Shown here: one piece after another, positions 3,021 to 58,692 of the stretch
Layout: the number at the start of each line of letters is the position of its first letter
Position numbering within the stretch: the first letter of the stretch is position 1
NCBI GenBank assembly: GCA_018063165.1
Contig: JAGOQU010000003.1
Location: 19,268 to 83,267 of the forward strand
DNA length: 64,000 bases
DNA from: Minisyncoccota bacterium
GTDB lineage: Bacteria; Patescibacteriota; Minisyncoccia; Phycocordibacterales; UBA5272
Direction of reading: 5' to 3'
Translations under genes and position numbers: made by a program
The notes under the pieces: generated by a model
Databases searched by the model: none
Told to the model about the DNA's origin: nothing
Seen by the model: the letters and a program-made list of their open reading frames with translations, nothing else

Positions 3021-3920
3021 GTGATATACTTATTGTATATGAATTTTTTAAATGCATTTTGGAACCCTTCTTTTTATAAAAATAATACAGGTACGTTTTC
3101 TTTTTGGAAAGCGTTTTTACGTCTTCTTATTGTTAGTTTTTTTATAGGGATAGTTTACGCTACTTTATTTTATGTAAAAATTGGTAAAGATATACCTACT
3201 TTTTTGTATTCTTTTGATGCAAAAGTTTCTGATGGATATCCTAATGATTTAGTTATTTCAATTAAAGATGAGAAATTATCTAAAAATATTCCAGGAGAAA
3301 TAAAATTGTATCCAGTGTCTATGTTTGGAAAAGATATTGAGGATCTAGTAGAAAAGAATATATCTCATTTTATTGTTATAGACGATACAAAAGAAGCAAC
3401 AGTAACATCATTTGAGCAATCTGGTGGATTAATGTTTTTTGCAAAAGATGGTTTTCTTGCAAAAGATAGCAATAATAAAATAAGTATAAGTTCTTATGAA
3501 GGTATGGATGAATTTTCAAAAGATATTACTTTTTCTAAAGAAGTCTTAACAAAGTTTTTAACTGAAGCAAATGAATATATACCTAGTATTCCTAAGATAA
3601 TTACCATAACTATCGTTATTGTTTATACGCTTTTTGTGTCTATATGGAATGCGTTTTATTTGTTATTTGTAGCTTTACTTGTTATGGTACTTAGTATTCA
3701 TATTATTAAACGTAAAGTTACATTTGGAGAAGCGTATATACTTTCTATGTATGCACTACCGTCACTTATTCTTCTTGAAGCTGTATTGTCGTATATCCCA
3801 TATGTAACTAGTGTTATTTCTTTTATACCATTTTTTACAACAATAGGTATATGTTTGTTCTTGCTTTATATGTTTAAAGAAAATAATGATACAAAAAAGC
3901 ATGGAGTTGCTTCTCTGTAG
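3021..3920 (+). CDS. hypothetical polytopic membrane protein
   Basis: Long ORF with several hydrophobic helices flanking a soluble central region. No recognisable catalytic motif. Confidence 0.45.
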   Translation: MIYLLYMNFLNAFWNPSFYKNNTGTFSFWKAFLRLLIVSFFIGIVYATLFYVKIGKDIPTFLYSFDAKVSDGYPNDLVISIKDEKLSKNIPGEIKLYPVSMFGKDIEDLVEKNISHFIVIDDTKEATVTSFEQSGGLMFFAKDGFLAKDSNNKISISSYEGMDEFSKDITFSKEVLTKFLTEANEYIPSIPKIITITIVIVYTLFVSIWNAFYLLFVALLVMVLSIHIIKRKVTFGEAYILSMYALPSLILLEAVLSYIPYVTSVISFIPFFTTIGICLFLLYMFKENNDTKKHGVASL

Positions 3921-7761: not shown

Positions 7762-8772
7762 TTATATAACGTTTATTGTTGGTTCGAGTATTGTTAGTTT
7801 GTAACTTTCTGGAGCATTTTTTAAATAGTCTTCTATTTTGTCTTCTGTGAGCAAGCCTTCTTGTGCTCCAATATGTTGTACCACATTCATACTATTGATA
7901 GGTGCACGTTTGATAGCCTCTGTTGCATCATATCCTTTTGCCATATATGCAATAAATGTAGAAAAGAATGCATCTCCCGCACCTGTTCTTTCATATGGTG
8001 GTGCTATATCTGGATATACAGGCATATTAAAATAACTATTGTTGTACTTCATGTATGCTCCAAGTGGACCATCTGTAATTATTACTGTTTTTGGACCAAA
8101 AGTTTCCAAGCCGTCAAGTAACGCTATCATACTGCTTCCTTCCATATCAAGAAGACCTTCTGCTTCTTCTTTATTCATACATACTACTTCAGTTTTTTTG
8201 TATAGATCTACAATTTCATGACCATATGCCAGCTGAAATGTTCCTGGTTGGAATGCAAGTTTTATATCAGGGTGTGTATCTAAATACGTTATAATATCAA
8301 AGTGAAAAGGTAAAGTGTGTTTACCTAACGATGAAAGATAGAGCCATTTTGGACTTCCTATATCTGGAATGATTGGCGTGAAGAGTTCATGTTTAATAAG
8401 TATTGTTCTGTCATTTCCTTGCCATAACACGTAATGGTAATTTGTTTTTTTACCTTCTTCTTGTCTAATAAAATCAATAGCTACATTTTCTTTTTTAAAT
8501 TGTGTAAAACAATCTTGTGCATAAGTGTCATTACCAAGTGCTGTAATAATAGCAGATTTTAAAGAGAGTCTTGATGCTGACACTGCTGCATTAGCACTAT
8601 TTCCTACGGCAGGTAGAATATAAGCATCATCAAAAGGTATTTTTGCTCCATAAGGGATGCAAAGCTCACTGCCATGAGCCGTTTCTTGTATATGTCCAAC
8701 GGATAATTTTATAAATGCATCGATAACAGTATCTCCAATAGAGATGAAATCAAATTCGGTTGTATGTTCCAT
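7762..8772 (-). CDS. pfkB-family carbohydrate kinase (ribokinase/sugar kinase-like)
   Basis: C-terminal TGAGDAF motif (pfkB signature 2) and an N-terminal GG dipeptide region. 336 aa. Confidence 0.75.
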   Translation of the reverse strand: MEHTTEFDFISIGDTVIDAFIKLSVGHIQETAHGSELCIPYGAKIPFDDAYILPAVGNSANAAVSASRLSLKSAIITALGNDTYAQDCFTQFKKENVAIDFIRQEEGKKTNYHYVLWQGNDRTILIKHELFTPIIPDIGSPKWLYLSSLGKHTLPFHFDIITYLDTHPDIKLAFQPGTFQLAYGHEIVDLYKKTEVVCMNKEEAEGLLDMEGSSMIALLDGLETFGPKTVIITDGPLGAYMKYNNSYFNMPVYPDIAPPYERTGAGDAFFSTFIAYMAKGYDATEAIKRAPINSMNVVQHIGAQEGLLTEDKIEDYLKNAPESYKLTILEPTINVI

Positions 8773-44919: not shown

Positions 44920-44992
44920 CCTCCGATAGTTCAAATGGATAGAACAGAAGCGTCCTAAGCTTTTAATGTGGGTTCAATTCCTGCTCGGGGGA
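44920..44992 (+). tRNA. tRNA-Arg (anticodon CCT), probable
   Basis: Cloverleaf folded by hand: acceptor cctccga/tcggggg, D-arm gttc-aaatggata-gaac, anticodon stem gaagc/gcttt with loop gtCCTaa, T-arm gtggg-ttcaatt-cctgc. It has a 4-nt variable loop and several G-U pairs, and no encoded CCA. Confidence 0.5.
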
Positions 44993-47542: not shown

Positions 47543-47615
47543 GCTGGGATAGCTCAGTTGGTAGAGCATTTGCCTGAAGAGCAAAGGGTCCCCAGTTCGA
47601 GCCTGGGTCCCAGCA
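47543..47615 (+). tRNA. tRNA-Phe (anticodon GAA)
   Basis: gctggga acceptor, tagctcagttggtagagc D-arm, anticodon loop cTGAAga, T-arm cccag-ttcgagc-ctggg, acceptor tcccagc + a. No encoded CCA. Confidence 0.9.
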
Positions 47616-49084: not shown

Positions 49085-49657
49085 TTAAATACTTTTAACT
49101 TTAAGTTTTGTTTGTCTTGCTTTGTCTACTTTAGGAAGTCTGATGATGAGAAGTCCGTGTTTTTCTACAGCTTCCGCTTCTTCTATTTCTACTTCATGAG
49201 GAAGGAGTATGGTACGGGTAAATGTCCCCCAATAAAGTTCTTTATAGAAATAATCATCGTGAGTTACTGAGGTATTTCCATCACGTCGTCCTTTTACTGT
49301 TACCATGTCACGTGTAATAGAAAGATGTAGATCTTCTGGTTTAACACCTGCAACCATAGCTTCTATGATGATTTCATTTGCTGTTTGATATACATCAACA
49401 GAGAGTTCTCCTTCTTCCATGTCAGGATCAACTTCTTCCATGTCTTCATCAAGAGTTAGATGTCTTGGTTTTGCACGAGCGGGTGAAGCAGACTGAACTG
49501 GTTGTTCTTGTTGTCTTTTCGCTGGATGCTTAATCTGCACCTCTTCTACCTCCTCTTCAATTTCTTGTTCTGGAGTAAAGTCAACTTGTTCATCTTCATC
49601 ATCGACACTTATCGATCCGGCAAGGCGTTCGAAAAATGATTTTTTTTCTTTAAGCAT
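49085..49657 (-). CDS. Hsp20/alpha-crystallin family small heat-shock protein with acidic N-terminal extension
   Basis: Alpha-crystallin domain pattern ...DVYQT.NEIIIEA.VAGVKPEDL.L....D.V.VKG... Confidence 0.8.
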   Translation of the reverse strand: MLKEKKSFFERLAGSISVDDEDEQVDFTPEQEIEEEVEEVQIKHPAKRQQEQPVQSASPARAKPRHLTLDEDMEEVDPDMEEGELSVDVYQTANEIIIEAMVAGVKPEDLHLSITRDMVTVKGRRDGNTSVTHDDYFYKELYWGTFTRTILLPHEVEIEEAEAVEKHGLLIIRLPKVDKARQTKLKVKSI

Positions 49658-49863: not shown

Positions 49864-51996
49864 TTACCATTTTGTTATCATTAAGATATTGTCTGTATCT
49901 TTTTTGATATAGCTCCATACTTCTTCTGTAATAAATGGCATAAAAGGGTGTAGAACAATCATTTGCTCTCGTAAGAGTGTAAGAAGTAATGTCTCTGCAC
50001 TTTCTTTTTCGTTATTTTCTAGTATTCTTGTTTTTCTTGTCTCTATGATTTCATCACAAAATACTTTCCAGAAATAATCGTATATTTTTTGTGATGCTAT
50101 ATGAAGACGAAAGTTTTCAAGATCATCTGTAATATCTTTTTGTATCTCTCTCCAAGCTTCATACACAGCTTGGTCTTCATTGTTTAGCTGTACATCTTTT
50201 TCAAGGTCTGCTGTTTTTTCTAATACAAAACGAGTTGCATTCCATATCTTATTGGCAAATTTTTTATATGCTTCAACTTTTTTTGGATCAAGGTTCATGT
50301 CTACTCCTGGAGCATTATTTACTACAAGTCCCATACGAAGTGCATCTGTTCCATATTGTGTTGAAATTTCTAGAGGAGAAATAACATTACCTTTACTTTT
50401 ACTCATTTTTTTACCTTTAGCATCTCTAACTAATCCATGAAGATAAATATGACTAAACGGAGTTTTTCCTGTAACGTATATACCTAACATCATCATACGA
50501 ACTACCCAGAAAAATAAAATATCAAAACCTGTTTCCATTACTTGTGTTGGATAGTATTTTTCAAAATCACCTTTTTTTGTATTCATGAGCGTTGCAAATG
50601 GCCATTGACCAGATGAAAACCAAGTATCAAATGAATCTGTTTCTTGAATCAGATTACCTCCACATTGTTTGCACGTGGTGAGTGTGTTGTCTATATCTAC
50701 ATAACCAGCTTCGCAGGCGTTACAAAGTTTTGCAGGAATAGGAATACCCCACACGATTTGTCTTGAAATGTTCCAGTCCTGAATATTCTCCATCCAATGA
50801 TAAAACATTTTTTCATGTTGTTCTGTAATAATCTTTGTCTCATTATTTTTCACAGCAAGGATAGCTTTTTCTGCTAACGGTTTCATTTTTATAAACCATT
50901 GTGGTTTTATTTGTGGTTCAAGTTCTCTTTCACATTTGTAACAGACAGATACTTCATGGACATATTCATTATCTATTTTTACAAGCAAACCTTTGGCGTC
51001 TAGTTTTTCAACTATTTTTTCTCTTGCATCTTTAATGCTCATACCTGCAAATTCTCCTGCTATGGGTAGAAGTTTTCCTTTCTCGTCAATGATTTGCTCA
51101 TAGTCTAGTTTATATTTTTGAGCAATATCAAAATCTATAGCCGAATGCCATGGTGTAATTGTCATGACTCCTGAACCAAATTCTGGATCACTTGCTTCAT
51201 CTTTAATAATAGTTGCTTCGATCGGGCCATTAATCCACTCAACGGTTATTTTTTGGCCATGTGTATATTCTTTATATCTTTCATCATCTGGATGCATAAC
51301 AACGTACTTATCTCCAAATTTTGTTTCTGGACGAACCGTACCTATCACAAATGGTCCATATTTAAAATAATAAAATGGATCTTTTCTCGAAATGTGTTCT
51401 GTTTCTAAATTAGAAAGTGATGTTTGATGCTTAGTGCACCAATTAACAATTCTTTTTCCTCTATATAACAATTTATCGTCTTCTAGTTTTTTGAATGTTT
51501 GATTAACTGTTTTGATAATATGTTCATCAAGTGTAAACATCTCACGTGACCAGTCACAACTAGCACCTAATTGACGAATTTGACCTTCCATAAAAGATTT
51601 ATTGAAAAGTGTAAAATCTAATATTTCTTTATAAAGATCATCACGATTCATGCCAAAACGAGATCTGCCTTCTTTATCAAGTTTTTTTTCATATACGGTT
51701 TGTGTTTCAAAGCCTGCATGATCAGCTCCTGGAAGCCATAAAGCACTTTTACCATTCATTCGATTAAATCGTATAAGAATATCTTGAATAGTAACAAAAA
51801 GAGCATGTCCTGCATGAAGTGATCCATTAGCATTTGGTGGTGGCATGATTATTGTATACGATTCTTTTCTGTCTCCTGGAAGATTATCAGGATTAAAATA
51901 GCCACTTTTCTCCCACATGTTATAGAGCGAAGCTTCAACAGCTTCAGCATTAAAGGGTTTTGTTAATTGTTCTGGTACTTGTTTCATAATATACAT
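49864..51996 (-). CDS. valS: valyl-tRNA synthetase (short form lacking C-terminal coiled coil)
   Basis: HIGH region PPPNANGSLHAGHAL (cf. ValRS PPPNVTGSLHMGHA), KMSKSKGN, WCTKH editing-domain region. 710 aa. Confidence 0.85.
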   Translation of the reverse strand: MYIMKQVPEQLTKPFNAEAVEASLYNMWEKSGYFNPDNLPGDRKESYTIIMPPPNANGSLHAGHALFVTIQDILIRFNRMNGKSALWLPGADHAGFETQTVYEKKLDKEGRSRFGMNRDDLYKEILDFTLFNKSFMEGQIRQLGASCDWSREMFTLDEHIIKTVNQTFKKLEDDKLLYRGKRIVNWCTKHQTSLSNLETEHISRKDPFYYFKYGPFVIGTVRPETKFGDKYVVMHPDDERYKEYTHGQKITVEWINGPIEATIIKDEASDPEFGSGVMTITPWHSAIDFDIAQKYKLDYEQIIDEKGKLLPIAGEFAGMSIKDAREKIVEKLDAKGLLVKIDNEYVHEVSVCYKCERELEPQIKPQWFIKMKPLAEKAILAVKNNETKIITEQHEKMFYHWMENIQDWNISRQIVWGIPIPAKLCNACEAGYVDIDNTLTTCKQCGGNLIQETDSFDTWFSSGQWPFATLMNTKKGDFEKYYPTQVMETGFDILFFWVVRMMMLGIYVTGKTPFSHIYLHGLVRDAKGKKMSKSKGNVISPLEISTQYGTDALRMGLVVNNAPGVDMNLDPKKVEAYKKFANKIWNATRFVLEKTADLEKDVQLNNEDQAVYEAWREIQKDITDDLENFRLHIASQKIYDYFWKVFCDEIIETRKTRILENNEKESAETLLLTLLREQMIVLHPFMPFITEEVWSYIKKDTDNILMITKW

Positions 51997-52087: not shown

Positions 52088-52348
52088 ATGGATTCTAAGC
52101 AAGCAATAAAAGGTAAAAAAGTTCGCTGTATCAATGCTACATTTAAAGATGATTCTCATTTTCCTTTTACAATGAAACAGCTCGTTCTTCCTAAAAGGGG
52201 ATCGGTATATACAATACGTGATGTAGAAAAGGGTAGTGATAACGAGCGGGGGATTCGTCTTGAAGAAATAGTCAATGAAAAATTTCCTTTTACAGCAGTT
52301 GGCATGAAAGAACCAATGTTCTTACTTCAAAGATTTACAGCACTATAA
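52088..52348 (+). CDS. hypothetical protein (86 aa)
   Basis: ORF followed by hairpin 52366..52390 (agagtaactac-tat-agttactct). Confidence 0.4.
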   Translation: MDSKQAIKGKKVRCINATFKDDSHFPFTMKQLVLPKRGSVYTIRDVEKGSDNERGIRLEEIVNEKFPFTAVGMKEPMFLLQRFTAL

Positions 52349-52432
52349 TTTTTTTAAAAAAGAGTAACTACTATAGTTACTCTTTTGTTGTATTGCTACA
52401 TGTTCTCTATATATAGTATGCTTATGTACATC

Positions 52433-52999
52433 ATGAAGAAAAATATTAAGAATAAGCAGTCAGAAATTTTACAAAAAGGTGGTTCCATAAAAACAGAAGC
52501 AGTAAAAAAAATAGTTAAAAAAACTATGAAGGTTGGTGGTGTTTTACATAAAGAAGCTCAAAAGTTACCTGATCACCATTTTAAAATAGTAAAAGTTAAA
52601 CGTGGTTTGGCGGGTCTTGGTCTTTTTGCTGGAGAATCTATTAAAAAAGGTGAGGTTATTATTGAGTACATTGGTAATATTTTAAATAAAGAGGAAGCAG
52701 ATAAGGTTGGGACAAATCAATATCTTTTTGAGGTGAATAGAAATAAAACAATAGATGGTTCTGTTAGATGGAATGTAGCTCGCTATTGTAATCATGCATG
52801 TGAAGAAGCTGCAAATGCTGAAAGTGAAATAAAAAAAGGAAGAGTGTTTGTTAAAGCAATAAAAGATATTAATAACGGTGAAGAAATTGTTTATGATTAT
52901 GGAGAAGAATTCGTTAATGAATATATTGCACCTAAAGGGTGTAGATGTATAGCAAAAGAACATAGTTATAACGCAAGAGTGATGCCAACGGTTGCATAG
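52433..52999 (+). CDS. SET-domain protein lysine methyltransferase (bacterial SET), Lys-rich N-terminus
   Basis: SET core: GLAGLGLFAGESIKKGEVIIEYIGNI, NHACEEAAN (cf. NHSCxPN), EIVYDYGEEF (ELxxDYG), post-SET Cys (CRCIAKEH). The ORF could begin at 52385/52400, but those overlap the upstream terminator hairpin. Confidence 0.7.
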   Translation: MKKNIKNKQSEILQKGGSIKTEAVKKIVKKTMKVGGVLHKEAQKLPDHHFKIVKVKRGLAGLGLFAGESIKKGEVIIEYIGNILNKEEADKVGTNQYLFEVNRNKTIDGSVRWNVARYCNHACEEAANAESEIKKGRVFVKAIKDINNGEEIVYDYGEEFVNEYIAPKGCRCIAKEHSYNARVMPTVA

Positions 53000-53042
53000 C
53001 TAATAGTGGATGGTCGGTAGCTGATAGTTTTAAATAATAAAT

Positions 53043-53087
53043 ACAAACACAGAGCGACCTTCGGTCGCTCTGTGTTTGTGTGTATAA
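53043..53087 (+). terminator. strong long-stem terminator after the SET gene
   Basis: acaaacacagagcgacc-ttcg-ggtcgctctgtgtttgt. Confidence 0.7.
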
Positions 53088-53282
53088 AATTACAGAAAAA
53101 TATTTTTATAACTTTATACAATGTATAAAATTTATTTTTATAAAATTTGTAAAAATAAATGTGTATAATTATTTTTTTAACAAAAAGTATATTTTTTATT
53201 TCTTTTTTATTTTTATATGATGTAAGTAGAGTGTGTTTAAAAAATATATTGATATATAAGGATAATATAATGATATATAAAG

Positions 53283-53316
53283 TGCATTTATGCAAGTGCT
53301 TTGCATTTGCATAAAT
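53283..53316. promoter_or_regulatory. nested dyad symmetry element containing ATGCAA-gtgct-TTGCAT (same 6-5-6 dyad as at 20480) within an AT-rich promoter region
   Basis: Seen directly: tgcatttATGCAAgtgctTTGCATttgcataaat. The outer arms atttatgcaa / ttgcataaat are also complementary. Confidence 0.45.
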
Positions 53317-53472
53317 AGAAAAAATAAAAATAAAAGTTATCCACAGAATTAACGTACAAAACTATTGTGTACTGATGTACGAATGTCATACTTAGTATAT
53401 CGAGAGTAATGGTCGCGGTCGTGATCATAAAAATTACAAACACTCTCTGATTTCTATAATAAATATATATTT

Positions 53473-53592
53473 ATGGCAGTAAAAAAAGTTGCTAAGAAAG
53501 CAGTAAAGAAAGTAGCCAAGAAAGCAGTCAAGAAAGTGGCTGTTAAGAAGGTTGCTAAGAAAGCTGTGAAGAAGGTTGCAAAGCGCGCATAG
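53473..53592 (+). CDS. 39-aa lysine/alanine-repeat basic peptide (MAVKKVAKKAVKKVAKKAVKKVAVKKVAKKAVKKVAKRA), histone H1-like/Hc1-like tail-type
   Basis: Clean ORF with TATAAT 16 nt upstream and a hairpin terminator (53613..53650) directly downstream. A (KKVAKKAV)n repeat. Too short for the ORF track. Confidence 0.45.
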   Translation: MAVKKVAKKAVKKVAKKAVKKVAVKKVAKKAVKKVAKRA

Positions 53593-53612
53593 TTAGCTTT
53601 GTTCCTCTTTAA

Positions 53613-53650
53613 AATAAATCACCCACTCCCATGGGTGATTTATTTTTTTA
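53613..53650 (+). terminator. hairpin terminator/attenuator between the K-rich peptide gene and the HMA-membrane gene
   Basis: aaatcacccac-tcccatg-ggtgatttattttttt. Confidence 0.6.
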
Positions 53651-53687
53651 TATCATCTACTCTTATTATCATGTATACTATTTGTAT

Positions 53688-54695
53688 ATGAATCGGTATA
53701 CTTTTTATATTTCAGGAACTCATTGTGAGTCATGTAAATTATTTGTAGAAGATGCTTTAGGTAAAAATGCTTCTGTTACTAATGTGTCAATGGATTTACG
53801 TAATGAAACAGTAACAATAGAAACACAAGAAGAAAAAAATAAAGAACTGTTTGCAGAAGAATTAACAAAACTTCTTCTAGATCGTCCATATACTATTACT
53901 GTACATAAGGTGTATGCAGAAAAATCTAACACGTATGAAACATGTATAGCGCTTCTTTTAGGTTTTAGTTTTACTCTACTCTTTTTTGTTTTTCAGAAAT
54001 ATAATACGATTTCTTTTGGAGATAATAGCGCTTCTATGTTTGTAACAAGTTTTTTTGTAGGTATTGTTGCGTCACTTTCAAGTTGTCTTGCTGTTGTCGG
54101 TGGACTTGTACTTTCTCTCTCTACAACATTAGTAGAAAGTGGTCTACGTACAAAAAAACCTTTTGTTCTTTTTCATATTGGAAGAATAGGAGGGTTTTTA
54201 TTTCTAGGTGGTCTGCTCGGATTTGTTGGGGGTACCCTTGGTGTTAACTATATTATTACTGGTCTTTTAGGTATCTTGGCGTCACTTGTTATGGTTGTGC
54301 TTGGTTTTAGTTTGCTTGGGGTTGGCAAAAGTGTAAGTCTTTCTCTACCTCGTTCTTTCTTTTCCTTTTTAAAAAGTAGTATGGCATCTACTAAGACTCC
54401 TTTTCTTGTTGGCGTTCTTACTTTTTTTCTTCCGTGTGGTTTTACACAATCAATGCAAATCTCTGCGTTATCTAGTGGCTCATTTATCTCTGGCGCACTT
54501 ATAATGTTTTTCTTTTCATTAGGAACTCTTCCAGTACTATCTCTTGTTTCTTTTGGGGCACTTTCTTTTTCAACATCAAGACATGCTACACTATTTTTTA
54601 AAACAGTTGGCGTTGTTGTGGTATCGCTCGGTCTTTTTTCTTTGTTTACTGGACTTGTAGGACTTGGTATTATTAATCCATTATTTAGTATTTAA
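53688..54695 (+). CDS. heavy-metal-associated (HMA) domain fused to DsbD_2/CcdA-like polytopic membrane domain
   Basis: N-terminal YISGTHCESCKLFVEDAL (GMxCxxC-type HMA). Then ~8 TM helices with a conserved FLPCGF Cys. The 53631 ATG overlaps the upstream terminator, so M53688 is preferred. Confidence 0.55.
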   Translation: MNRYTFYISGTHCESCKLFVEDALGKNASVTNVSMDLRNETVTIETQEEKNKELFAEELTKLLLDRPYTITVHKVYAEKSNTYETCIALLLGFSFTLLFFVFQKYNTISFGDNSASMFVTSFFVGIVASLSSCLAVVGGLVLSLSTTLVESGLRTKKPFVLFHIGRIGGFLFLGGLLGFVGGTLGVNYIITGLLGILASLVMVVLGFSLLGVGKSVSLSLPRSFFSFLKSSMASTKTPFLVGVLTFFLPCGFTQSMQISALSSGSFISGALIMFFFSLGTLPVLSLVSFGALSFSTSRHATLFFKTVGVVVVSLGLFSLFTGLVGLGIINPLFSI

Positions 54696-54703
54696 TTTTT
54701 TTT

Positions 54704-55132
54704 ATGAAAACCATTATTTCTCTCCTTGTTGCGCTTTGTATTATTATTGGTCTTGGTTATTTTTTTATAAATCCGTCTACTCAAAAAACACATGTAAACA
54801 TTTCAAGTGACGCTACTAAAACTAGTGAAACAGAAGTCGGTGTAACGAATAGTGTGATAGAAAATGGTGCTCAAATTGTAACTATTAAAGCAAAAGATGG
54901 ATATACTCCTCGAAAGTCTGTTGCGCAGGCAGGGGTTCCAACACTGTTTAGTTTAGAAACAGATAGAACATATGATTGTTCAGCGTCTATTGTTATTAAT
55001 TCTCTTAATGTTAGAAGAACACTTCCAAATACTGGAACAACACTTATAGATGCTGGTGTAAGATCTGTGGGTGATGTAATAGAAGGTGTTTGCTCTATGG
55101 GTATGTATAGTTTTAGTGTGGAGTTCAAATAG
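54704..55132 (+). CDS. secreted cupredoxin-like small beta-sandwich protein (putative metal-binding partner of the upstream membrane protein)
   Basis: Signal/anchor, then ~100-aa beta-rich domain with conserved Cys (DCSASIVI, GVCSMGMY). A 9-nt gap from the HMA-DsbD_2 gene suggests an operon. Confidence 0.4.
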   Translation: MKTIISLLVALCIIIGLGYFFINPSTQKTHVNISSDATKTSETEVGVTNSVIENGAQIVTIKAKDGYTPRKSVAQAGVPTLFSLETDRTYDCSASIVINSLNVRRTLPNTGTTLIDAGVRSVGDVIEGVCSMGMYSFSVEFK

Positions 55133-55218
55133 AAAATTGGGGTAGAATTGTGTAACATGTTTTATGTATTGTTTTGTATAAAAAGCTAATAAAATAAGGA
55201 GTTTTTAGATAGTATTTT

Positions 55219-55247
55219 TTGACATAAATACATTTATGATGTATACT
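55219..55247 (+). promoter_or_regulatory. canonical sigma70-type promoter (TTGACA-17-TATACT) driving the GC-rich gene
   Basis: Seen directly: ttgaca taaatacatttatgatg tatact. Confidence 0.55.
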
Positions 55248-55275
55248 ATATATAGTTCATTGATGCTATCTTAAA

Positions 55276-55340
55276 AAGTAGTCATAGCCAAAAGATTTTA
55301 TGTGTGTATTTTTTATGAGATTTTCTGGCTATGACTACTT
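55276..55340 (+). promoter_or_regulatory. 15-bp perfect inverted repeat (AAGTAGTCATAGCCA ... TGGCTATGACTACTT) with ~35-nt AT-rich loop in the 5' UTR of the GC-rich gene
   Basis: Seen directly. Lies between the promoter and the RBS, and no T-run follows it. Confidence 0.5.
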
Positions 55341-55379
55341 ACAGTTCTAGCTCCTTTACTCACGGACAGTGAGAAGAAA

Positions 55380-56000
55380 ATGAGCAAACAGCTCAAGGAG
55401 AAGATAATGAAATACGGCGAACTCACACTCGGACAAGTGGAAGCGATTGTAAACAAGCTCGGCGGTATGGAAGGTGTAAAGCGTTTCTTATCTGGTGAGC
55501 TACCTGTTTCTGCAAAGACAAAGGTCTGGAAGACGTGGAAAACCATTAAGCTCGGCACTGGTCTGAAGTCAGCTGATGACTTCCGCAAGGAGGTTGTGGA
55601 GGCAGGGATGAAGATTGGCGACTGGGCAAATGACATCCTCGGCAAGCCCGCCTTCACGGCGACAACCAGCGAAACGGAAGTTGAACTGGTCGTTGCCTCC
55701 GTGGCTGAACTCGGCTTCAAGGATGGTGCAACTCGCAAAGACATCTACGTTCGTGCCCAAGAGCTCGGACTGGACCTATGCCCACCCGAAGTCGGTCCGC
55801 AACTGCGTTTGCAGTACACGGACCAGCCCAAAGGTGAATGGCTTGTCATTGCGATGGAGCCCATCACTGACTCGGATGGCGACCTCAACCTGTTCCACGT
55901 TGGACACGGTGACGGTGTACGCTGGCTCGACGCTGACTACGGCGACCCTGGCTATTTCTGGCGCGGTGGCGGCCGTTTCGTCTTCCTCCGTCGGAAGTGA
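55380..56000 (+). CDS. unknown protein encoded in a compositionally foreign (about 50% GC) island; probable horizontally acquired cargo gene
   Basis: 206-aa ORF with strong G/C third-position bias (ctcggc, aagctc, gacatc). Other frames and the opposite strand give only low-complexity S/T/P/A ORFs typical of antisense GC-rich DNA. Own promoter, RBS-like gagaag, and terminator. Product not recognised. Confidence 0.6.
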   Translation: MSKQLKEKIMKYGELTLGQVEAIVNKLGGMEGVKRFLSGELPVSAKTKVWKTWKTIKLGTGLKSADDFRKEVVEAGMKIGDWANDILGKPAFTATTSETEVELVVASVAELGFKDGATRKDIYVRAQELGLDLCPPEVGPQLRLQYTDQPKGEWLVIAMEPITDSDGDLNLFHVGHGDGVRWLDADYGDPGYFWRGGGRFVFLRRK

Positions 56001-56055: not shown

Positions 56056-56151
56056 GTAGTTATGATATTGTTTTTTTAGATCTGTTTAAATATGTTCAAT
56101 TTTTCTCTTTTTGTATATAAAAAGTCTATTTTATGCTATAATTACACAACT

Positions 56152-58692
56152 ATGTCTTTTATTTCCAAGCTTTTCCCCGACGAATCAAAAAAACTTATTA
56201 AAACCCTAGAACCTATAGCAGATAAGGTTTTTTCTCATGAAGATGTTTTAAAATTGCTTTCTGATGATGAACTTAAAGCAAAGGGTGTTGCTTTGAAAGA
56301 AAAGGTGATGAAGGAAATAGAAGGTCTTTCTGGTGAAGAATTAAAGAAAAAAGAAAAAGACGTTTTAGATGATGTGCTTCCAGAAGCATTTGCACTTGTT
56401 CGTGAAGCGTCACGCAGAACTCTTAAAATGATGCATTATCGTGTACAGGTTGTAGGAGGAATATTGCTTCATCGTGGTCATATAGCAGAAATGAGAACAG
56501 GAGAAGGAAAGACACTTGTGGCAACACTTCCTGCATATTTGAATGCACTTACTGGTCGTGGTGTACATATTGTTACTGTAAACGATTATCTTTCTAGACG
56601 TGACGCTGTATGGATGGGGCAGGTATATGACGCGCTTGGTCTTACTAGTTCTGTTATCAATAATCAATCTTCTTTTATGTATGACAGCACTCATTTGAGT
56701 GAAGAGGAAGAAAAAGATGATGATATTGCACGTGCTGAAATAGGGTCATACAAAGTGGTGTATGATTTTCTTAAACCATGTGGAAGACAAGAGGCGTATA
56801 GAGCAGATATTACGTACGGAACCAATAACGAATTTGGTTTTGATTATTTGCGTGACAATATTGGTTATAGTAAAGATGCTATTGTTCAACATACACATCA
56901 TTATGCAATAGTTGATGAAATAGATTCTATTTTAATAGATGAAGCACGTACACCACTTATTATTTCTGCGCCATCAGCAGAATCTAGTGATATGTATATG
57001 AAGTTTTCTCAAATAGCACAGGATCTTGTGGAAGGAGATGACTATACTGTTGATGAAAAACAGCGCGCTATTGCTCTTACTGAAGAAGGTATAACAAAAG
57101 CAGAGACATCACTTGGTATTTCTAATATATATTCTGTTGAAGGAATGAAATATGTGCACCATCTTGAAACCGCTGTAAAAGCAAAAGCACTATTTCTTCG
57201 TGAGCGTGAATACGTAGTAAAGGATGGAGAAGTAATTATTGTTGATGAATTCACTGGTCGTATGCAACCAGGACGTCGTTGGTCAGATGGAATACATCAG
57301 GCTGTAGAAGCAAAAGAAGGTGTAAAAATAGAACAAGAATCAAGAACACTTGCTTCTATTACATTCCAAAACTATTTCCGTTTTTATGAAAAGCTTGCAG
57401 GTATGACAGGAACAGCTGAGACATCTAAAGAAGAATTTTATAAAGTGTATGGTCTTGTAGTAACTCCCGTGCCTACACATAACCCTATACATAGAGTTGA
57501 TCATAGTGATTTTATTTTTCAATCAGAAAAAGGAAAATGGAAAGCTCTCGCAAAGAAAGTAAAAGAACTGCATGCTAAAGGACAACCTGTACTGATTGGT
57601 ACTATTTCTATTGAGAAAAATGAGGCAGTATCTGAATATTTAAGACATGCTGGTGTTCCTCATACTATACTTAATGCTAAGAATCATGAAAAAGAAGGAG
57701 AGATCGTAGCTGCCGCAGGAAGAAAAGGTGCTGTAACAATTGCAACAAACATGGCGGGTCGTGGTGTTGATATTAAGCTTGGCGGTCCACAAGCAACTGA
57801 TTCGGAACATGAAGATGTTGTAACTCTTGGAGGTCTCTTTGTTATTGGAACAGAACGTCATGAAGCTCGTAGAATCGATAATCAGCTTCGTGGTCGTTCA
57901 GGAAGACAAGGGGATGCAGGAGAGACACAGTTTTTTGTATCTCTTGAAGATGATCTTATGCGTGTGTTCGGTTCTAATAATATAAAGACAATGATGGGAC
58001 GTTTTGGTATACCAGAAGATGAGCCAGTGTCTAGTAAGATGGTGTCGCGAGCTCTTGAAGGAGCTCAAGAAAAGATAGAAGGGTTCCATTTTGATACACG
58101 TAAGCATACGCTTCAGTATGATGATGTTCTAAATCATCAGCGTACAAGTATTTATACCAAGCGTCGTAAGATTTTGTTTAATGATGAAGCGTTTACTGAT
58201 GAAGTAATAGCAGAGCTTATAGCAGAAAAGCCTGAGTTAGAAGAGATTTTTAAAGAAAAAGAGACAAGATATACCAAAGAAGCAGTGAGACATATACTTC
58301 GTATTATGATACTTCAGATTATAGATACATTATGGATGGAGCATCTTGATCAAATGGAACATCTTCGTAGTAGTGTGAATCTCCGTGCATATGGTCAGCG
58401 TGACCCACTTGTGGAGTACAAAAAAGAAGGTCTTAGAATGTTTAGAGGACTTGAAGCTTCACTTAGAGGAGAGCTTATAACATTTATCGAAAATATTGAT
58501 GGATTTTTTGCATCACAGCAAGCACAAGAACGTCAGCAAGAAAGTTTTGTACAAGTGATTCCTAGTGTTCCTTCAGGTGATTCTTTAATTGATTCACATA
58601 TAAAAGTAGGAAGAAATGACCCATGTCCTTGTGGCAGTGGAAAGAAAGTGAAGAAATGTGAATGTACAGAATACGAACATCTTAGAAAATAA
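56152..58692 (+). CDS. secA: preprotein translocase ATPase SecA
   Basis: DEAD-like motor motifs (MRTGEGKTLVATLPAYL, VTVNDYLSRRD), and C-terminal zinc-binding CPCGSGKKVKKC. The 56092 ATG gives a non-conserved extension, so M56152 is preferred. Confidence 0.95.
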   Translation: MSFISKLFPDESKKLIKTLEPIADKVFSHEDVLKLLSDDELKAKGVALKEKVMKEIEGLSGEELKKKEKDVLDDVLPEAFALVREASRRTLKMMHYRVQVVGGILLHRGHIAEMRTGEGKTLVATLPAYLNALTGRGVHIVTVNDYLSRRDAVWMGQVYDALGLTSSVINNQSSFMYDSTHLSEEEEKDDDIARAEIGSYKVVYDFLKPCGRQEAYRADITYGTNNEFGFDYLRDNIGYSKDAIVQHTHHYAIVDEIDSILIDEARTPLIISAPSAESSDMYMKFSQIAQDLVEGDDYTVDEKQRAIALTEEGITKAETSLGISNIYSVEGMKYVHHLETAVKAKALFLREREYVVKDGEVIIVDEFTGRMQPGRRWSDGIHQAVEAKEGVKIEQESRTLASITFQNYFRFYEKLAGMTGTAETSKEEFYKVYGLVVTPVPTHNPIHRVDHSDFIFQSEKGKWKALAKKVKELHAKGQPVLIGTISIEKNEAVSEYLRHAGVPHTILNAKNHEKEGEIVAAAGRKGAVTIATNMAGRGVDIKLGGPQATDSEHEDVVTLGGLFVIGTERHEARRIDNQLRGRSGRQGDAGETQFFVSLEDDLMRVFGSNNIKTMMGRFGIPEDEPVSSKMVSRALEGAQEKIEGFHFDTRKHTLQYDDVLNHQRTSIYTKRRKILFNDEAFTDEVIAELIAEKPELEEIFKEKETRYTKEAVRHILRIMILQIIDTLWMEHLDQMEHLRSSVNLRAYGQRDPLVEYKKEGLRMFRGLEASLRGELITFIENIDGFFASQQAQERQQESFVQVIPSVPSGDSLIDSHIKVGRNDPCPCGSGKKVKKCECTEYEHLRK

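Follow-up and report, generated by a model that had tools for sequence, protein, structure and literature searches.

The DNA analyzed here, a 64-kb stretch referred to below as the window, contains a conserved two-gene neighborhood in which a gene for a SET-domain protein lysine methyltransferase (SET) is followed on the same strand by a gene for a tiny polycationic protein (PEP). Our working proposal, which we consider possible but somewhat short of probable, is that PEP is a nucleoid polycation and the prime candidate substrate of the SET enzyme. The window derives from a member of the Paceibacterota (Parcubacteria), confirming the CPR-like origin suspected in an earlier note on this DNA. 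That note had read the locus as a SET methyltransferase lying next to a lysine-rich, histone-like candidate substrate, and its overall interpretation is partly supported by the comparisons described here.

The SET gene (52433..52999, + strand) encodes a 188-aa protein that matches the Pfam SET family (PF00856) over profile positions 1-105 of 105 (E=3.2e-23; 82.6 bits with a cut-off of 22.4). The motifs G61-L-G63, E78-Y79-I-G81, N120-H121-A-C123, and Y154-D-Y156-G are invariant among 22 homologues, and these catalytic and SAM-binding motifs align with those of MLL3. The post-SET segment reads GC170RC172xAxxH177, or C-x-C-x4-H, and residues C123, C170, C172, and H177 are likewise invariant (n=22 homologues). 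Plausibly, these four residues form a Cys3His variant of the post-SET zinc cluster. An AlphaFold model based on the 22-sequence alignment was too poor (pLDDT 42) for the post-SET geometry to be judged, because the available homologues are all at least 69% identical. The N-terminal tail (residues 1-45) is Lys-rich with a net charge of +10, and the catalytic core is neutral. The nearest solved structures in a PDB comparison were the SET domains of MLL3/KMT2C, MLL, and SET1 (best E=3e-19). The prior assignment of this ORF as a SET-domain protein with the characteristic motifs and a post-SET Cys is thus well founded, and its sequence is that of a canonical SET/post-SET protein with predicted lysine methyltransferase activity. 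Across the same 31 genomes (Paceibacterota/Parcubacteria MAGs), the median identity was 82% for the SET core versus 80.5% for SecA and 57% for ValRS. Conservation at the level of SecA fits a conserved endogenous function.

PEP (53473..53592, + strand) starts 473 nt past the SET stop codon and encodes 39 aa of (KKVAKKAV)n repeats ending in AKRA (MAVKKVAKKAVKKVAKKAVKKVAVKKVAKKAVKKVAKRA). The clean 39-codon Lys/Ala/Val ORF said to lie about 470 bp 3′ of SET is therefore present as described, and it is the only ORF of this kind in the window. PEP was retained in every one of the 43 related loci with sufficient sequence, and it has diverged in the manner of coding DNA. Differences were concentrated at third codon positions (40/40/149 and 8/9/44), codon changes were synonymous in 126 cases versus nonsynonymous in 62, and DNA with 8-10 differing sites was found to specify identical peptides, as in loci L012 and L018 with 10 nucleotide differences. 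Arg codons have undergone synonymous AGA/CGA swaps, the AKRA C-terminus is conserved, and AAG is favored among the lysine codons (AAG:AAA = 497:214 in SET-clade PEP, about 70% AAG, in a genome that favors AAA; the ratio is 4:62 in the ValRS gene of the window). As far as substitution patterns can, these signatures establish PEP as a true, translated protein gene under purifying selection. The alternative of a purine-rich, non-coding RNA was also considered and was ruled out by the codon-position statistics and the synonymous Arg swaps.

In the SET clade, PEP consists of 47% K, 30% A, and 11% V, with the number of repeats varying among species; K+R accounts for 50-60% of PEP residues and median lengths are 21-35 aa. 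SET-linked PEPs had a median length of 35 aa versus 21 aa for the others (Mann-Whitney p=1e-7) and an Arg content of 2.7% versus 12.3%, both comparisons being ones in which kinship is ignored and GC content is a confounder. Pfam and NCBIfam searches, including the Hc1, linker histone, and H1-like models, gave no match for PEP even at E<=10, and a PDB profile search returned only cupiennin-1a (E=0.28, not meaningful). The H1/Hc1-like label given to PEP in the earlier note thus holds for its composition of K/A-rich repeats, but not for family homology. When the peptide profile was run against a protein database, every match was an N-terminally extended mis-call of the PEP gene, and none carried a name. 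The failure of PEP to match any known nucleoid-protein family in these searches is a point against a nucleoid role.

PEP is predicted to have a control region of its own. A DnaA box with the perfect consensus AGTTATCCACA (53335..53345, + strand) is located 19 nt 5′ of the −35 element of promoter P1 (53365..53392, + strand), which combines a −35 of TTGTGT (53365-53370), a 16-nt spacer, and a −10 of CATACT (53387-53392). The box is invariant in 44/44 aligned loci. The geometry is conserved as well: all 44 SET-clade loci, which were collected independently of the promoter pattern, have the box, 18-19 nt, TTGTRT, 16-17 nt, and [CG]ATA[AC]T in this order, and P1 has the sequence of a canonical sigma-70 promoter. 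Within the window, the TTATCCACA box has a single occurrence, and of the 52 perfect DnaA boxes counted over 519 kb of related loci, 46 occupy the site upstream of PEP. The same box is found 5′ of PEP in non-SET lineages, and its distance to the −35 element across PEP loci is 17-19 nt. A perfect box at a set spacing from the core promoter makes this region a putative DnaA-regulated promoter. An oriC at the box and the AT-rich spacer was also considered, but was rejected on the monotonic rise of the cumulative GC skew across the window and the presence of a single box.

A second promoter-like site, P2 (ATTACA-16-TATAAT; 53433..53460, + strand), scored 10/12 and best in the region in a promoter scan, and its TTTG(T/C)ATAAT sequence is conserved in the SET clade. 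Use of P2 would yield a near-leaderless PEP mRNA. At the 3′ end, a terminator scan identified an intrinsic terminator (53611..53653, + strand) with a 15-bp stem, the loop CUCCCA, and a T-run. This terminator is present in essentially every locus, with covarying stems and the loop YCCCR kept in 38/44 SET-clade loci. The same scan detected a 17-bp GC-rich hairpin between SET and the PEP unit, just past the SET stop codon (53043..53079), and everywhere among the loci compared PEP has its own promoter and terminator. These signals agree with the earlier view that PEP has its own TATAAT (that of P2) and terminator, and that the two genes are transcribed as separate units.

The PEP leader (53394..53472, + strand; about 75-80 nt) shows conserved pairing. 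It includes an outer inverted repeat of GAGAGT (53402-53407) and ACTCTC (53442-53447), and a covarying inner hairpin (53410-53427, + strand) whose loop carries GGUCG (53417-53421) on the 3′ side. Overall, 93% of cells were paired, three pairs change on both sides, and 0/500 shuffles reached the covariation score. Across lineages, 36 distinct stem pairs in 70 loci all end just past GGUCG, with hairpin loop insertions of 3-55 nt. RNAalifold recovered only a 4-bp inner hairpin with weak energy from the SET-clade leaders, so the case for the structure is made by the counts for the named pairs and the stem variation across lineages. Rfam returned no family for the window, for the intergenic region at E<=5, or for nine other loci, and we take the GGUCG-loop hairpin to be a new motif among leader RNAs. 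With neither SRP RNA nor tRNA among the Rfam results, resemblances of the leader to these two RNA classes were also set aside.

Either PEP or, at a contig end, its promoter was found 3′ of SET on the same strand in 46/46 loci from related GTDB species with enough downstream sequence; in two SET loci that end at the contig edge, the PEP promoter is still present. The reading in the earlier note depended on a small ORF that is conserved in relatives and co-occurs in synteny with SET, and both features were observed. The two genes are directly adjacent in 35/43 loci, with a gap of 184-473 nt, and 0.9-3.1 kb is inserted between them in the other 8/43. By comparison, a direct PEP-secA junction is found in 12/43 loci of the SET clade. 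The SET-PEP adjacency also holds in the deepest SET lineages (L043-L048, 51-57% identity), where the downstream gene is hpf, not secA. In the window, three inserted genes (53631-56000) separate PEP from secA (56092..58692, + strand; Pfam SecA domains), which elsewhere usually lies immediately 3′ of the PEP unit. On the other side, SET is preceded by Hsp20 (49085-49657, − strand; Pfam HSP20) and by a gene (49864-51996, − strand) that we take to be ValRS on our own reading of its translation. In nearly all of the 48 loci, the genes ahead of SET fall into the corresponding clusters (c3 and c1). The Hsp20-ValRS-SET synteny is as strong as that of SET-PEP, and the SET-PEP adjacency may therefore reflect inherited gene order or phylogenetic inertia.

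PEP belongs to a family that extends well beyond the SET clade. Its members are polycationic K/R/A ORFs of 12-69 aa embedded in a unit consisting of the invariant DnaA box, a sigma-70 promoter, the GGUCG leader hairpin, the ORF, and an intrinsic terminator, and the usual place of this unit is just 5′ of secA or hpf. In about 33/39 non-SET loci, secA (cluster c0) directly follows PEP; hpf (Pfam S30AE) follows it in the SET lineages L043-L048 and in L150. PEP is also retained where minus-strand genes follow, or where there is no secA within 6 kb. No adjacent SET gene is present in about 37/39 metagenomic PEP loci, and PEP is not a SET-specific partner. A search for recurrent modifying enzymes 5′ of PEP in the non-SET lineages found none; the 5′ neighbors there include MurB, Ddl, an O-antigen-ligase-like protein and, judging by eye, probably RNase HII and Nudix. 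Taken at face value, these distributions make the PEP unit ancestral in Parcubacteria. Since PEP is older and far more widespread, SET is a later, clade-specific addition in a Nomurabacteria-like Paceibacterota clade. Because PEP predates SET and occurs without a neighboring SET gene, its function does not need SET.

We propose that PEP, expressed from its own unit, would be a trans-acting polycation that binds nucleic acids. Its most probable role would be that of a minimal, H1/Hc2-like counter-ion in the nucleoid, with synthesis linked to DnaA; a ribosome-binding role appears less likely. The connection of PEP to DNA is an indirect one, through the invariant DnaA box in its promoter. SET was acquired immediately 5′ of PEP in the clade of the window and has stayed there. 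It may methylate lysine residues in an abundant basic protein of the cell itself, and PEP, which in this clade is nearly Arg-free, about 47% Lys, and longer than elsewhere, would be its prime candidate substrate. Judged from sequence and gene order, an enzyme-substrate relationship between SET and PEP is plausible, with cpnSET-Hc1 of C. pneumoniae as a known analogy. A bolder version, to which we give little credence, would make PEP a protamine-like polycation and the main DNA counter-ion or compaction factor of Parcubacteria, with its synthesis coupled through DnaA to replication initiation, methyl marks written by SET in the Nomurabacteria-like clade, and feedback through the GGUCG hairpin. 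S-phase histone synthesis provides a loose parallel to such coupling.

It is also conceivable, though on balance somewhat doubtful, that the adjacency is simply inherited gene order, with the substrate of SET located elsewhere (uS19-like A/K tails, translation factors, or basic proteins) and PEP unrelated to it. The much wider distribution of PEP, the separate transcription units, the insertions that interrupt 8/43 SET-PEP junctions, and the equally syntenic Hsp20-ValRS-SET block all favor this explanation. Other A/K-rich targets do exist in Parcubacteria and weigh against a SET-PEP pair, for example the C-terminal tail of uS19, whose A/K-rich character is specific to this group (PMC9297842). 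Against inherited order, the linkage is kept in 46/46 loci, down to 51% SET identity and despite a rearranged downstream context, a protein with about 47% lysine is an obvious target for a lysine methyltransferase, and the PEPs linked to SET are longer and nearly Arg-free. SET enzymes that act as effectors on host histones are known from other bacteria (Legionella RomA/LegAS4, Chlamydia NUE, B. anthracis BaSET), and CPR bacteria are symbionts. The SET protein of the window could likewise be secreted to methylate host histones, its basic N-terminal tail resembling an NLS, and PEP would then be irrelevant. This is very unlikely despite the fact that most characterized bacterial SET proteins are host-directed (PMC3980110), that the sole NCBIfam match, far under the cut-off, is the Legionella effector AnkI/LegAS4, and that eukaryotic H3K4 methyltransferases come closest to SET among solved structures. 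The 82% identity of the core, similar to that of SecA and spanning many species, is unlike that of fast-evolving effectors, no signal peptide or neighboring secretion-system genes were found, and the invariable linkage to PEP would be left unexplained.

PEP might instead be a tiny ribosomal protein, an analogue of bS22, eL41, or bL37 in a setting of SD-less, leaderless translation. SET, if it acts on PEP, would then be a ribosomal-protein methyltransferase like the SET-domain enzymes Rkm1-4 of yeast, rather than a chromatin writer. We regard this as unlikely, although a number of features fit it. bS22 is about 30 aa long, is about 61% K/R, is often unannotated, and has been linked to leaderless mRNAs (PMC10618245, PMC12123416), and the anti-SD has been lost in a Parcubacteria subgroup (PMC9297842). 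SD-like sequences were detected at 5/60 genes of the window, a −10-like box precedes the ATG by 7-10 nt in most genes, and by these signals the genome is essentially SD-less with leaderless mRNAs. Together with the hpf gene that lies 3′ of PEP in some lineages (L043-L048, L150), this points PEP toward the ribosome, and the structured leader hairpin resembles the autoregulatory leaders of ribosomal-protein genes. On the other hand, PEP matched neither the bS22 family in Pfam (AURKAIP1/DUF1713) nor solved ribosomal peptides, and a PDB search with M. smegmatis bS22 returned actinobacterial bS22 and mS38 only, none of them PEP-like. A protein that ranges from 12 to 69 aa by repeat expansion and lacks hydrophobic anchors is unlike a fixed rRNA-pocket peptide, and an invariant DnaA box would be unexpected for a ribosomal-protein gene. 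The Lys-codon ORF could also be read as a leader peptide acting in cis, an attenuator or SecM-like monitor of read-through into secA, rather than as a functional protein. The arrangement in most lineages of a very short ORF with about 50% of one codon family, a terminator 20-40 nt on, and then secA recalls the his, phe, and thr leader peptides, where a short ORF is likewise followed by a terminator. Even so, such a role is highly improbable. secA has its own extended −10 promoter past the terminator, and PEP remains intact ahead of minus-strand genes, several kb before secA (as in the window), or with no secA within 6 kb. Selection acts on its amino acids, as reflected in the Arg codon swaps and the AKRA C-terminus, its preference for AAG avoids stalling on A-runs, whereas a stalling sensor would require the reverse, and no alternative antiterminator was identified.

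Hardly any endogenous substrate of a bacterial SET enzyme is known, and the synteny of SET with PEP supplies a concrete candidate. If the proposed roles are correct, a protamine-like PEP together with SET would constitute a minimal bacterial system of histone-like protein and writer. As a nucleoid protein or a ribosomal peptide, PEP would bear on DNA packaging in ultra-small CPR bacteria or on SD-less translation, respectively. The PEP family also illustrates how tiny proteins are missed or mis-called in annotation, the existing database entries being N-terminally extended artefacts, and its control region of DnaA box, promoter, new leader motif, and terminator is unusually rich amid leaderless mRNAs.

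Among known systems, a functional model for SET-PEP is provided by cpnSET of Chlamydophila pneumoniae, which binds to both Hc1 and Hc2 and has been found to methylate Hc1 (Murata 2007; review, PMC3980110). In both cases, a small bacterial SET enzyme is paired with a Lys/Ala-rich, basic, endogenous protein. However, Hc1 and Hc2 both far exceed 100 aa (165-237 aa for Hc2; PMC2848022) and Hc1 has a Pfam family, whereas PEP is 12-69 aa without a family match. The cpnSET-Hc1 pair has biochemistry behind it, whereas SET-PEP is a candidate pair proposed from conserved adjacency. The chlamydial cpnSET and Hc1/Hc2 genes are, to our knowledge, not adjacent. Go1-SET, which methylates MC1-alpha (PMC3980110), is similar in being a prokaryotic SET enzyme with an endogenous, DNA-associated substrate, but MC1 is a folded archaeal chromatin protein with one methylated lysine, whereas PEP is a low-complexity polylysine peptide. 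By structure, the best matches of the enzyme are in the SET1/MLL family (KMT2C, KMT2D, KMT2A, yeast SET1; E=3e-19 to 1e-15), with alignments that cover SET plus the start of post-SET and shared GxG, YxG, NHxC, and YDY motifs. It differs from these in being a stand-alone 188-aa bacterial protein with a Lys-rich N-terminal tail and no WDR5/RbBP5-type partners, and in having C-x-C-x4-H in place of the canonical C-x-C-x4-C.

With hisL, pheL, and SecM leaders, PEP shares a short ORF dominated by one codon family and an intrinsic terminator, but not the obligatory cis linkage or the antiterminator. It resembles bS22, eL41, mS38, and bL37 (about 24-33 aa, >55% K/R) in being tiny, polycationic, missed by annotation, and linked to leaderless, SD-less expression. 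bS22, which is predicted in more bacteria (PMC10618245, PMC12123416), carries hydrophobic anchors and hardly varies in length or sequence within a lineage, whereas PEP varies from 12 to 69 aa, is built of K and R plus A, V, and T only, and has no sequence match to any of the four. In composition, PEP is like the K/A-rich, low-complexity repeats of Hc2, AlgP, HupB/HupS, TopA, and Ku tails. These K/A(/P/V) repeats are described as varying in copy number among strains and as binding polyanions such as DNA or polyphosphate. In those proteins the repeats are domains or tails of something larger, whereas PEP consists of nothing but the repeat and has a DnaA-box promoter of its own and a structured leader.

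The SET gene of the window (52433..52999, +) encodes a 188-aa protein that matches the Pfam SET profile over its whole length (E=3.2e-23, 82.6 bits; cut-off 22.4), and the earlier note's call of a SET-domain methyltransferase gene was borne out. In an alignment of 22 sequences the motifs GLG, EYIG, NHAC and YDYG are invariant, as are C119, C123, C170, C172 and H177. In the post-SET region, for which a Cys had been claimed, C170 and C172 belong to a C-x-C-x4-H arrangement; the canonical form is C-x-C-x4-C. A database search returned 721 homologues, the best 120 of which are 69-93% identical and include one from a Candidatus Paceibacterota MAG. The nearest solved structures found by profile search were the SET domain of MLL3/KMT2C (E=3e-19), followed by MLL4, SET1 and MLL1, with NSD, EZH2 and G9a ranking after these; an AlphaFold model built on a shallow alignment reached a pLDDT of only 42, too low for use. 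The core is electrically neutral and is preceded by a Lys-rich tail (residues 1-45, net +10), and the KKIVKK within this tail recalls the sequence of the small peptide encoded downstream. In the 31 species whose retrieved loci include SET, ValRS and SecA, the window proteins are matched at median identities of 82% for the SET core, 80.5% for SecA, 76% for Hsp20 and 57% for ValRS; SET is accordingly constrained at housekeeping level. Just upstream lies an 86-aa ORF (52088-52348) with its own terminator (52358-52386); a family search with it gave no match, and the sole public contig carrying this exact SET protein (L169) has it annotated as a gene.

The small gene, here called PEP, begins 473 nt past the SET stop (53473..53592, +), exactly where the earlier note had reported it, and encodes MAVKKVAKKAVKKVAKKAVKKVAVKKVAKKAVKKVAKRA. 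It is the sole K/A/V-type ORF of the 64-kb window. Searches of Pfam, NCBIfam and the PDB with PEP found no matching family, and its only database entries are nameless, N-terminally extended miscalls. Comparisons among relatives show PEP to be a real coding gene whose amino-acid sequence is under selection. In equal-length pairs from the SET clade, the lineages carrying SET beside PEP, differences at codon positions 1/2/3 number 40/40/149, codon changes are synonymous in 126 cases against 62 nonsynonymous ones, and identical peptides are encoded by L012 and L018 despite 10 nucleotide differences and by L028 and L030 despite 8. In SET-less lineages the corresponding counts are 8/9/44 and 39 to 9, the synonymous changes including Arg AGA/CGA swaps. 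About 70% of PEP Lys codons are AAG (AAG:AAA 497:214 in the SET clade), while AAA:AAG is 62:4 in the window's ValRS and 21:6 in its SET; this preference looks like avoidance of slippery A-runs, i.e. selection for faithful translation.

The 140 nt upstream of PEP are strikingly conserved. They contain an invariant, perfect DnaA-box consensus (AGTTATCCACA, 53335..53345), followed 18-19 nt later by a -35 element TTGTRT (53365..53370) and, after a 16-17-nt spacer, by a -10 element [CG]ATA[AC]T (53387..53392). The box sequence TTATCCACA occurs once in the window, at PEP, and of 52 perfect boxes counted across related loci (519 kb in total), 46 lie at the PEP site. A second perfect TTATCCACA box is conserved ~2.4 kb upstream of SET in the deepest SET-bearing lineages (L043, L044, L045, L046 and L048, at about 3590-3725 of these loci) and is a second candidate DnaA-bound site of the neighbourhood. 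In the leader of ~80 nt between the -10 and PEP, GAGAGT (53402-07) pairs with ACTCTC (53442-47), and inside this pairing lies a second hairpin (53410-27) with GGUCG (53417-21) on the 3' side of the loop. In the SET clade this structure is 93% paired, three pairs are changed on both sides, and its covariation score was reached by 0/500 shuffles; RNAalifold by itself gives weak support. Among lineages the hairpin recurs with wholly different stems (GCAATAAA/TTTATTGC, GCATCG/CGATGC, CCAATGAACAT/ATGTTTGTTGG), of which 70 loci show 36 distinct pairs, and with loop insertions of 3-55 nt, and it always ends 0-2 nt past GGUCG, a comparison that supports an RNA structure well. The leader matched no Rfam family, and the sole Rfam matches of the window at the gathering threshold are two tRNA genes (44920-44992 and 47543-47615). 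There is a likeness between the 3' half of the hairpin (GCGGUCGUGAUCA, 53415-53427) and helix 45 of 16S rRNA (3' strand plus linker, GCGGUUGGAUCA in E. coli); since conservation outside the SET clade is limited to GGUCG, it is probably a coincidence.

The TATAAT and terminator earlier ascribed to the small ORF were both found: ATTACA-16-TATAAT at 53433..53460 (P2), and a 15-bp hairpin with T-run at 53611..53646. With a 17-bp hairpin (53043..53079) following SET, the two genes form separate transcription units, as had been proposed. P2 is plausible as a second, near-leaderless promoter because the genome is almost devoid of SD sequences: an SD-like motif precedes 5/60 window genes, and in most of the genes the ATG follows a TATACT-like -10 box by 7-10 nt (e.g. 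1900, 3959, 5215, 7762-8772, 8815, 10362, 24046), so that mRNAs would be predominantly leaderless, in agreement with the reported loss of the anti-SD in a subgroup of Parcubacteria (PMC9297842). On a freely covarying stem, the terminator loop YCCCR (CUCCCA in the window) is kept in 38/44 loci of the SET clade and is absent from non-SET lineages; its conservation suggests an extra function, e.g. protein binding or RNA pairing. Between PEP and secA the window, ~33% GC overall, has an insert of three genes (53631-56000): one for a DsbD_2 membrane protein that carries an HMA metal-binding domain at its N-terminus (53631-54695), a 142-aa ORF (54704-55132) and a 206-aa ORF (55380-56000), the last in a stretch of 40% GC with several long overlapping ORFs, which may be a foreign insertion.

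A pattern scan based on the SET alignment, in which each GTDB species was represented by one genome, gave 48 loci at 51-80% identity. Exactly one K/A/V small ORF lies downstream on the same strand in all 43 loci reaching more than ~400 nt past SET; two others stop before the ORF yet already include its conserved promoter, and in the last three the sequence stops at SET or inside it. SET and PEP co-occur in 46/46, down to 51% SET identity and including the deepest lineages (L043-48), where hpf lies downstream, and by the criteria set in the earlier note its hypothesis of a SET-peptide pair stands unrefuted. The distance from SET to PEP is 184-473 nt in 35/43 loci and 0.9-3.1 kb in 8/43 (L001, L005, L011, L022, L027, L033, L042, L045). 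One inserted minus-strand ORF cluster, c36, possibly a mobile element, is shared by L011, L016 and L045.

PEP extends well beyond SET. Metagenome contigs scanned for the box and promoter pattern yielded at least 120 loci; some, with several DnaA boxes, are plainly chance matches or resemble an oriC, and chance probably accounts for most of the others without an ORF. Among the matches listed, ~39 show, 50-175 nt downstream of the pattern, a tiny ORF rich in K/R/A and 12-69 aa long (e.g. MAKKKKAAKKGKKRA, MAKKRKAAKKKKR), always with an intrinsic terminator 20-40 nt past its stop; only two of these carry SET (L098, L146), and secA directly follows in ~33/39 by neighbour clustering. L150 has hpf in that place, upstream genes vary (MurB, Ddl, an O-antigen-ligase-like protein), and many loci have an extended -10 promoter for secA after the terminator. 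In SET-less L060 the SecA has its nearest relatives among Adlerbacteria and Kaiserbacteria, and the PEP unit therefore spans Parcubacteria. PEP is ancestral, and SET was added in one clade, immediately upstream of the unit.

PEP is a gene in its own right rather than a mere secA leader: it has its own promoter and terminator everywhere, is retained away from secA and is under selection for its amino-acid sequence. It is intact despite minus-strand genes or several kb in between (the window, L010, L011, L015, L017) and where secA is missing within 6 kb (L036-38, L043-48). Its H1/Hc2-like composition, repeat-number variation and invariant DnaA box favour a nucleoid polycation. A serious rival is a ribosomal peptide of the bS22/eL41 kind; such proteins are ~30 aa long, ~60% K/R and often unannotated, and are expected in more bacteria and tied to leaderless translation (PMC10618245, PMC12123416). 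The leaderless window genome, the hpf adjoining PEP in some lineages and the structured leaders typical of ribosomal-protein autoregulation all suit this reading, but Pfam and PDB searches found no sequence match to these proteins, PEP spans 12 to 69 aa and is without hydrophobic anchor residues, and the DnaA box would be left unexplained.

That SET and PEP are enzyme and substrate is a tentative reading, to which we give somewhat less than an even chance. The 46/46 linkage, persisting through the downstream change to hpf, argues for it, as does a direct SET-PEP junction commoner (35/43) than PEP-secA (12/43) in the SET clade. SET-linked PEPs would also suit it: they are longer than the others (median 35 vs 21 aa; p=1e-7) and contain hardly any Arg (2.7% vs 12.3%), in comparisons that ignore kinship and are confounded by GC content. 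A further argument is precedent, since cpnSET with Hc1 and Go1-SET with MC1-alpha (PMC3980110) already pair a prokaryotic SET enzyme with a basic endogenous protein, as a lysine methyltransferase beside the 47%-lysine PEP would. Adjacency could, however, be inertia, because the Hsp20-ValRS-SET block is equally syntenic; the separate transcription units, the insertions in 8/43 loci and the existence of other A/K-rich targets, such as the uS19 tail of Parcubacteria (PMC9297842), also speak against a link. A possible lead is that after Met removal the PEP N-terminus would read A-A/V-K-K; its Lys4 would then lie as far from the free Ala as does K4 of histone H3 (A-R-T-K4), on which the nearest SET proteins of solved structure act.

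The earlier observation is thus confirmed and its interpretation partly supported: a chromatin-modification module survives the synteny test, but the far wider distribution of PEP than of SET weakens it, as does the chance that PEP is not chromatin-associated. More solid as a finding is the PEP unit, which usually sits upstream of secA or hpf: an unannotated family of tiny polycationic proteins whose genes have a promoter with a DnaA box and a leader with a new RNA motif.
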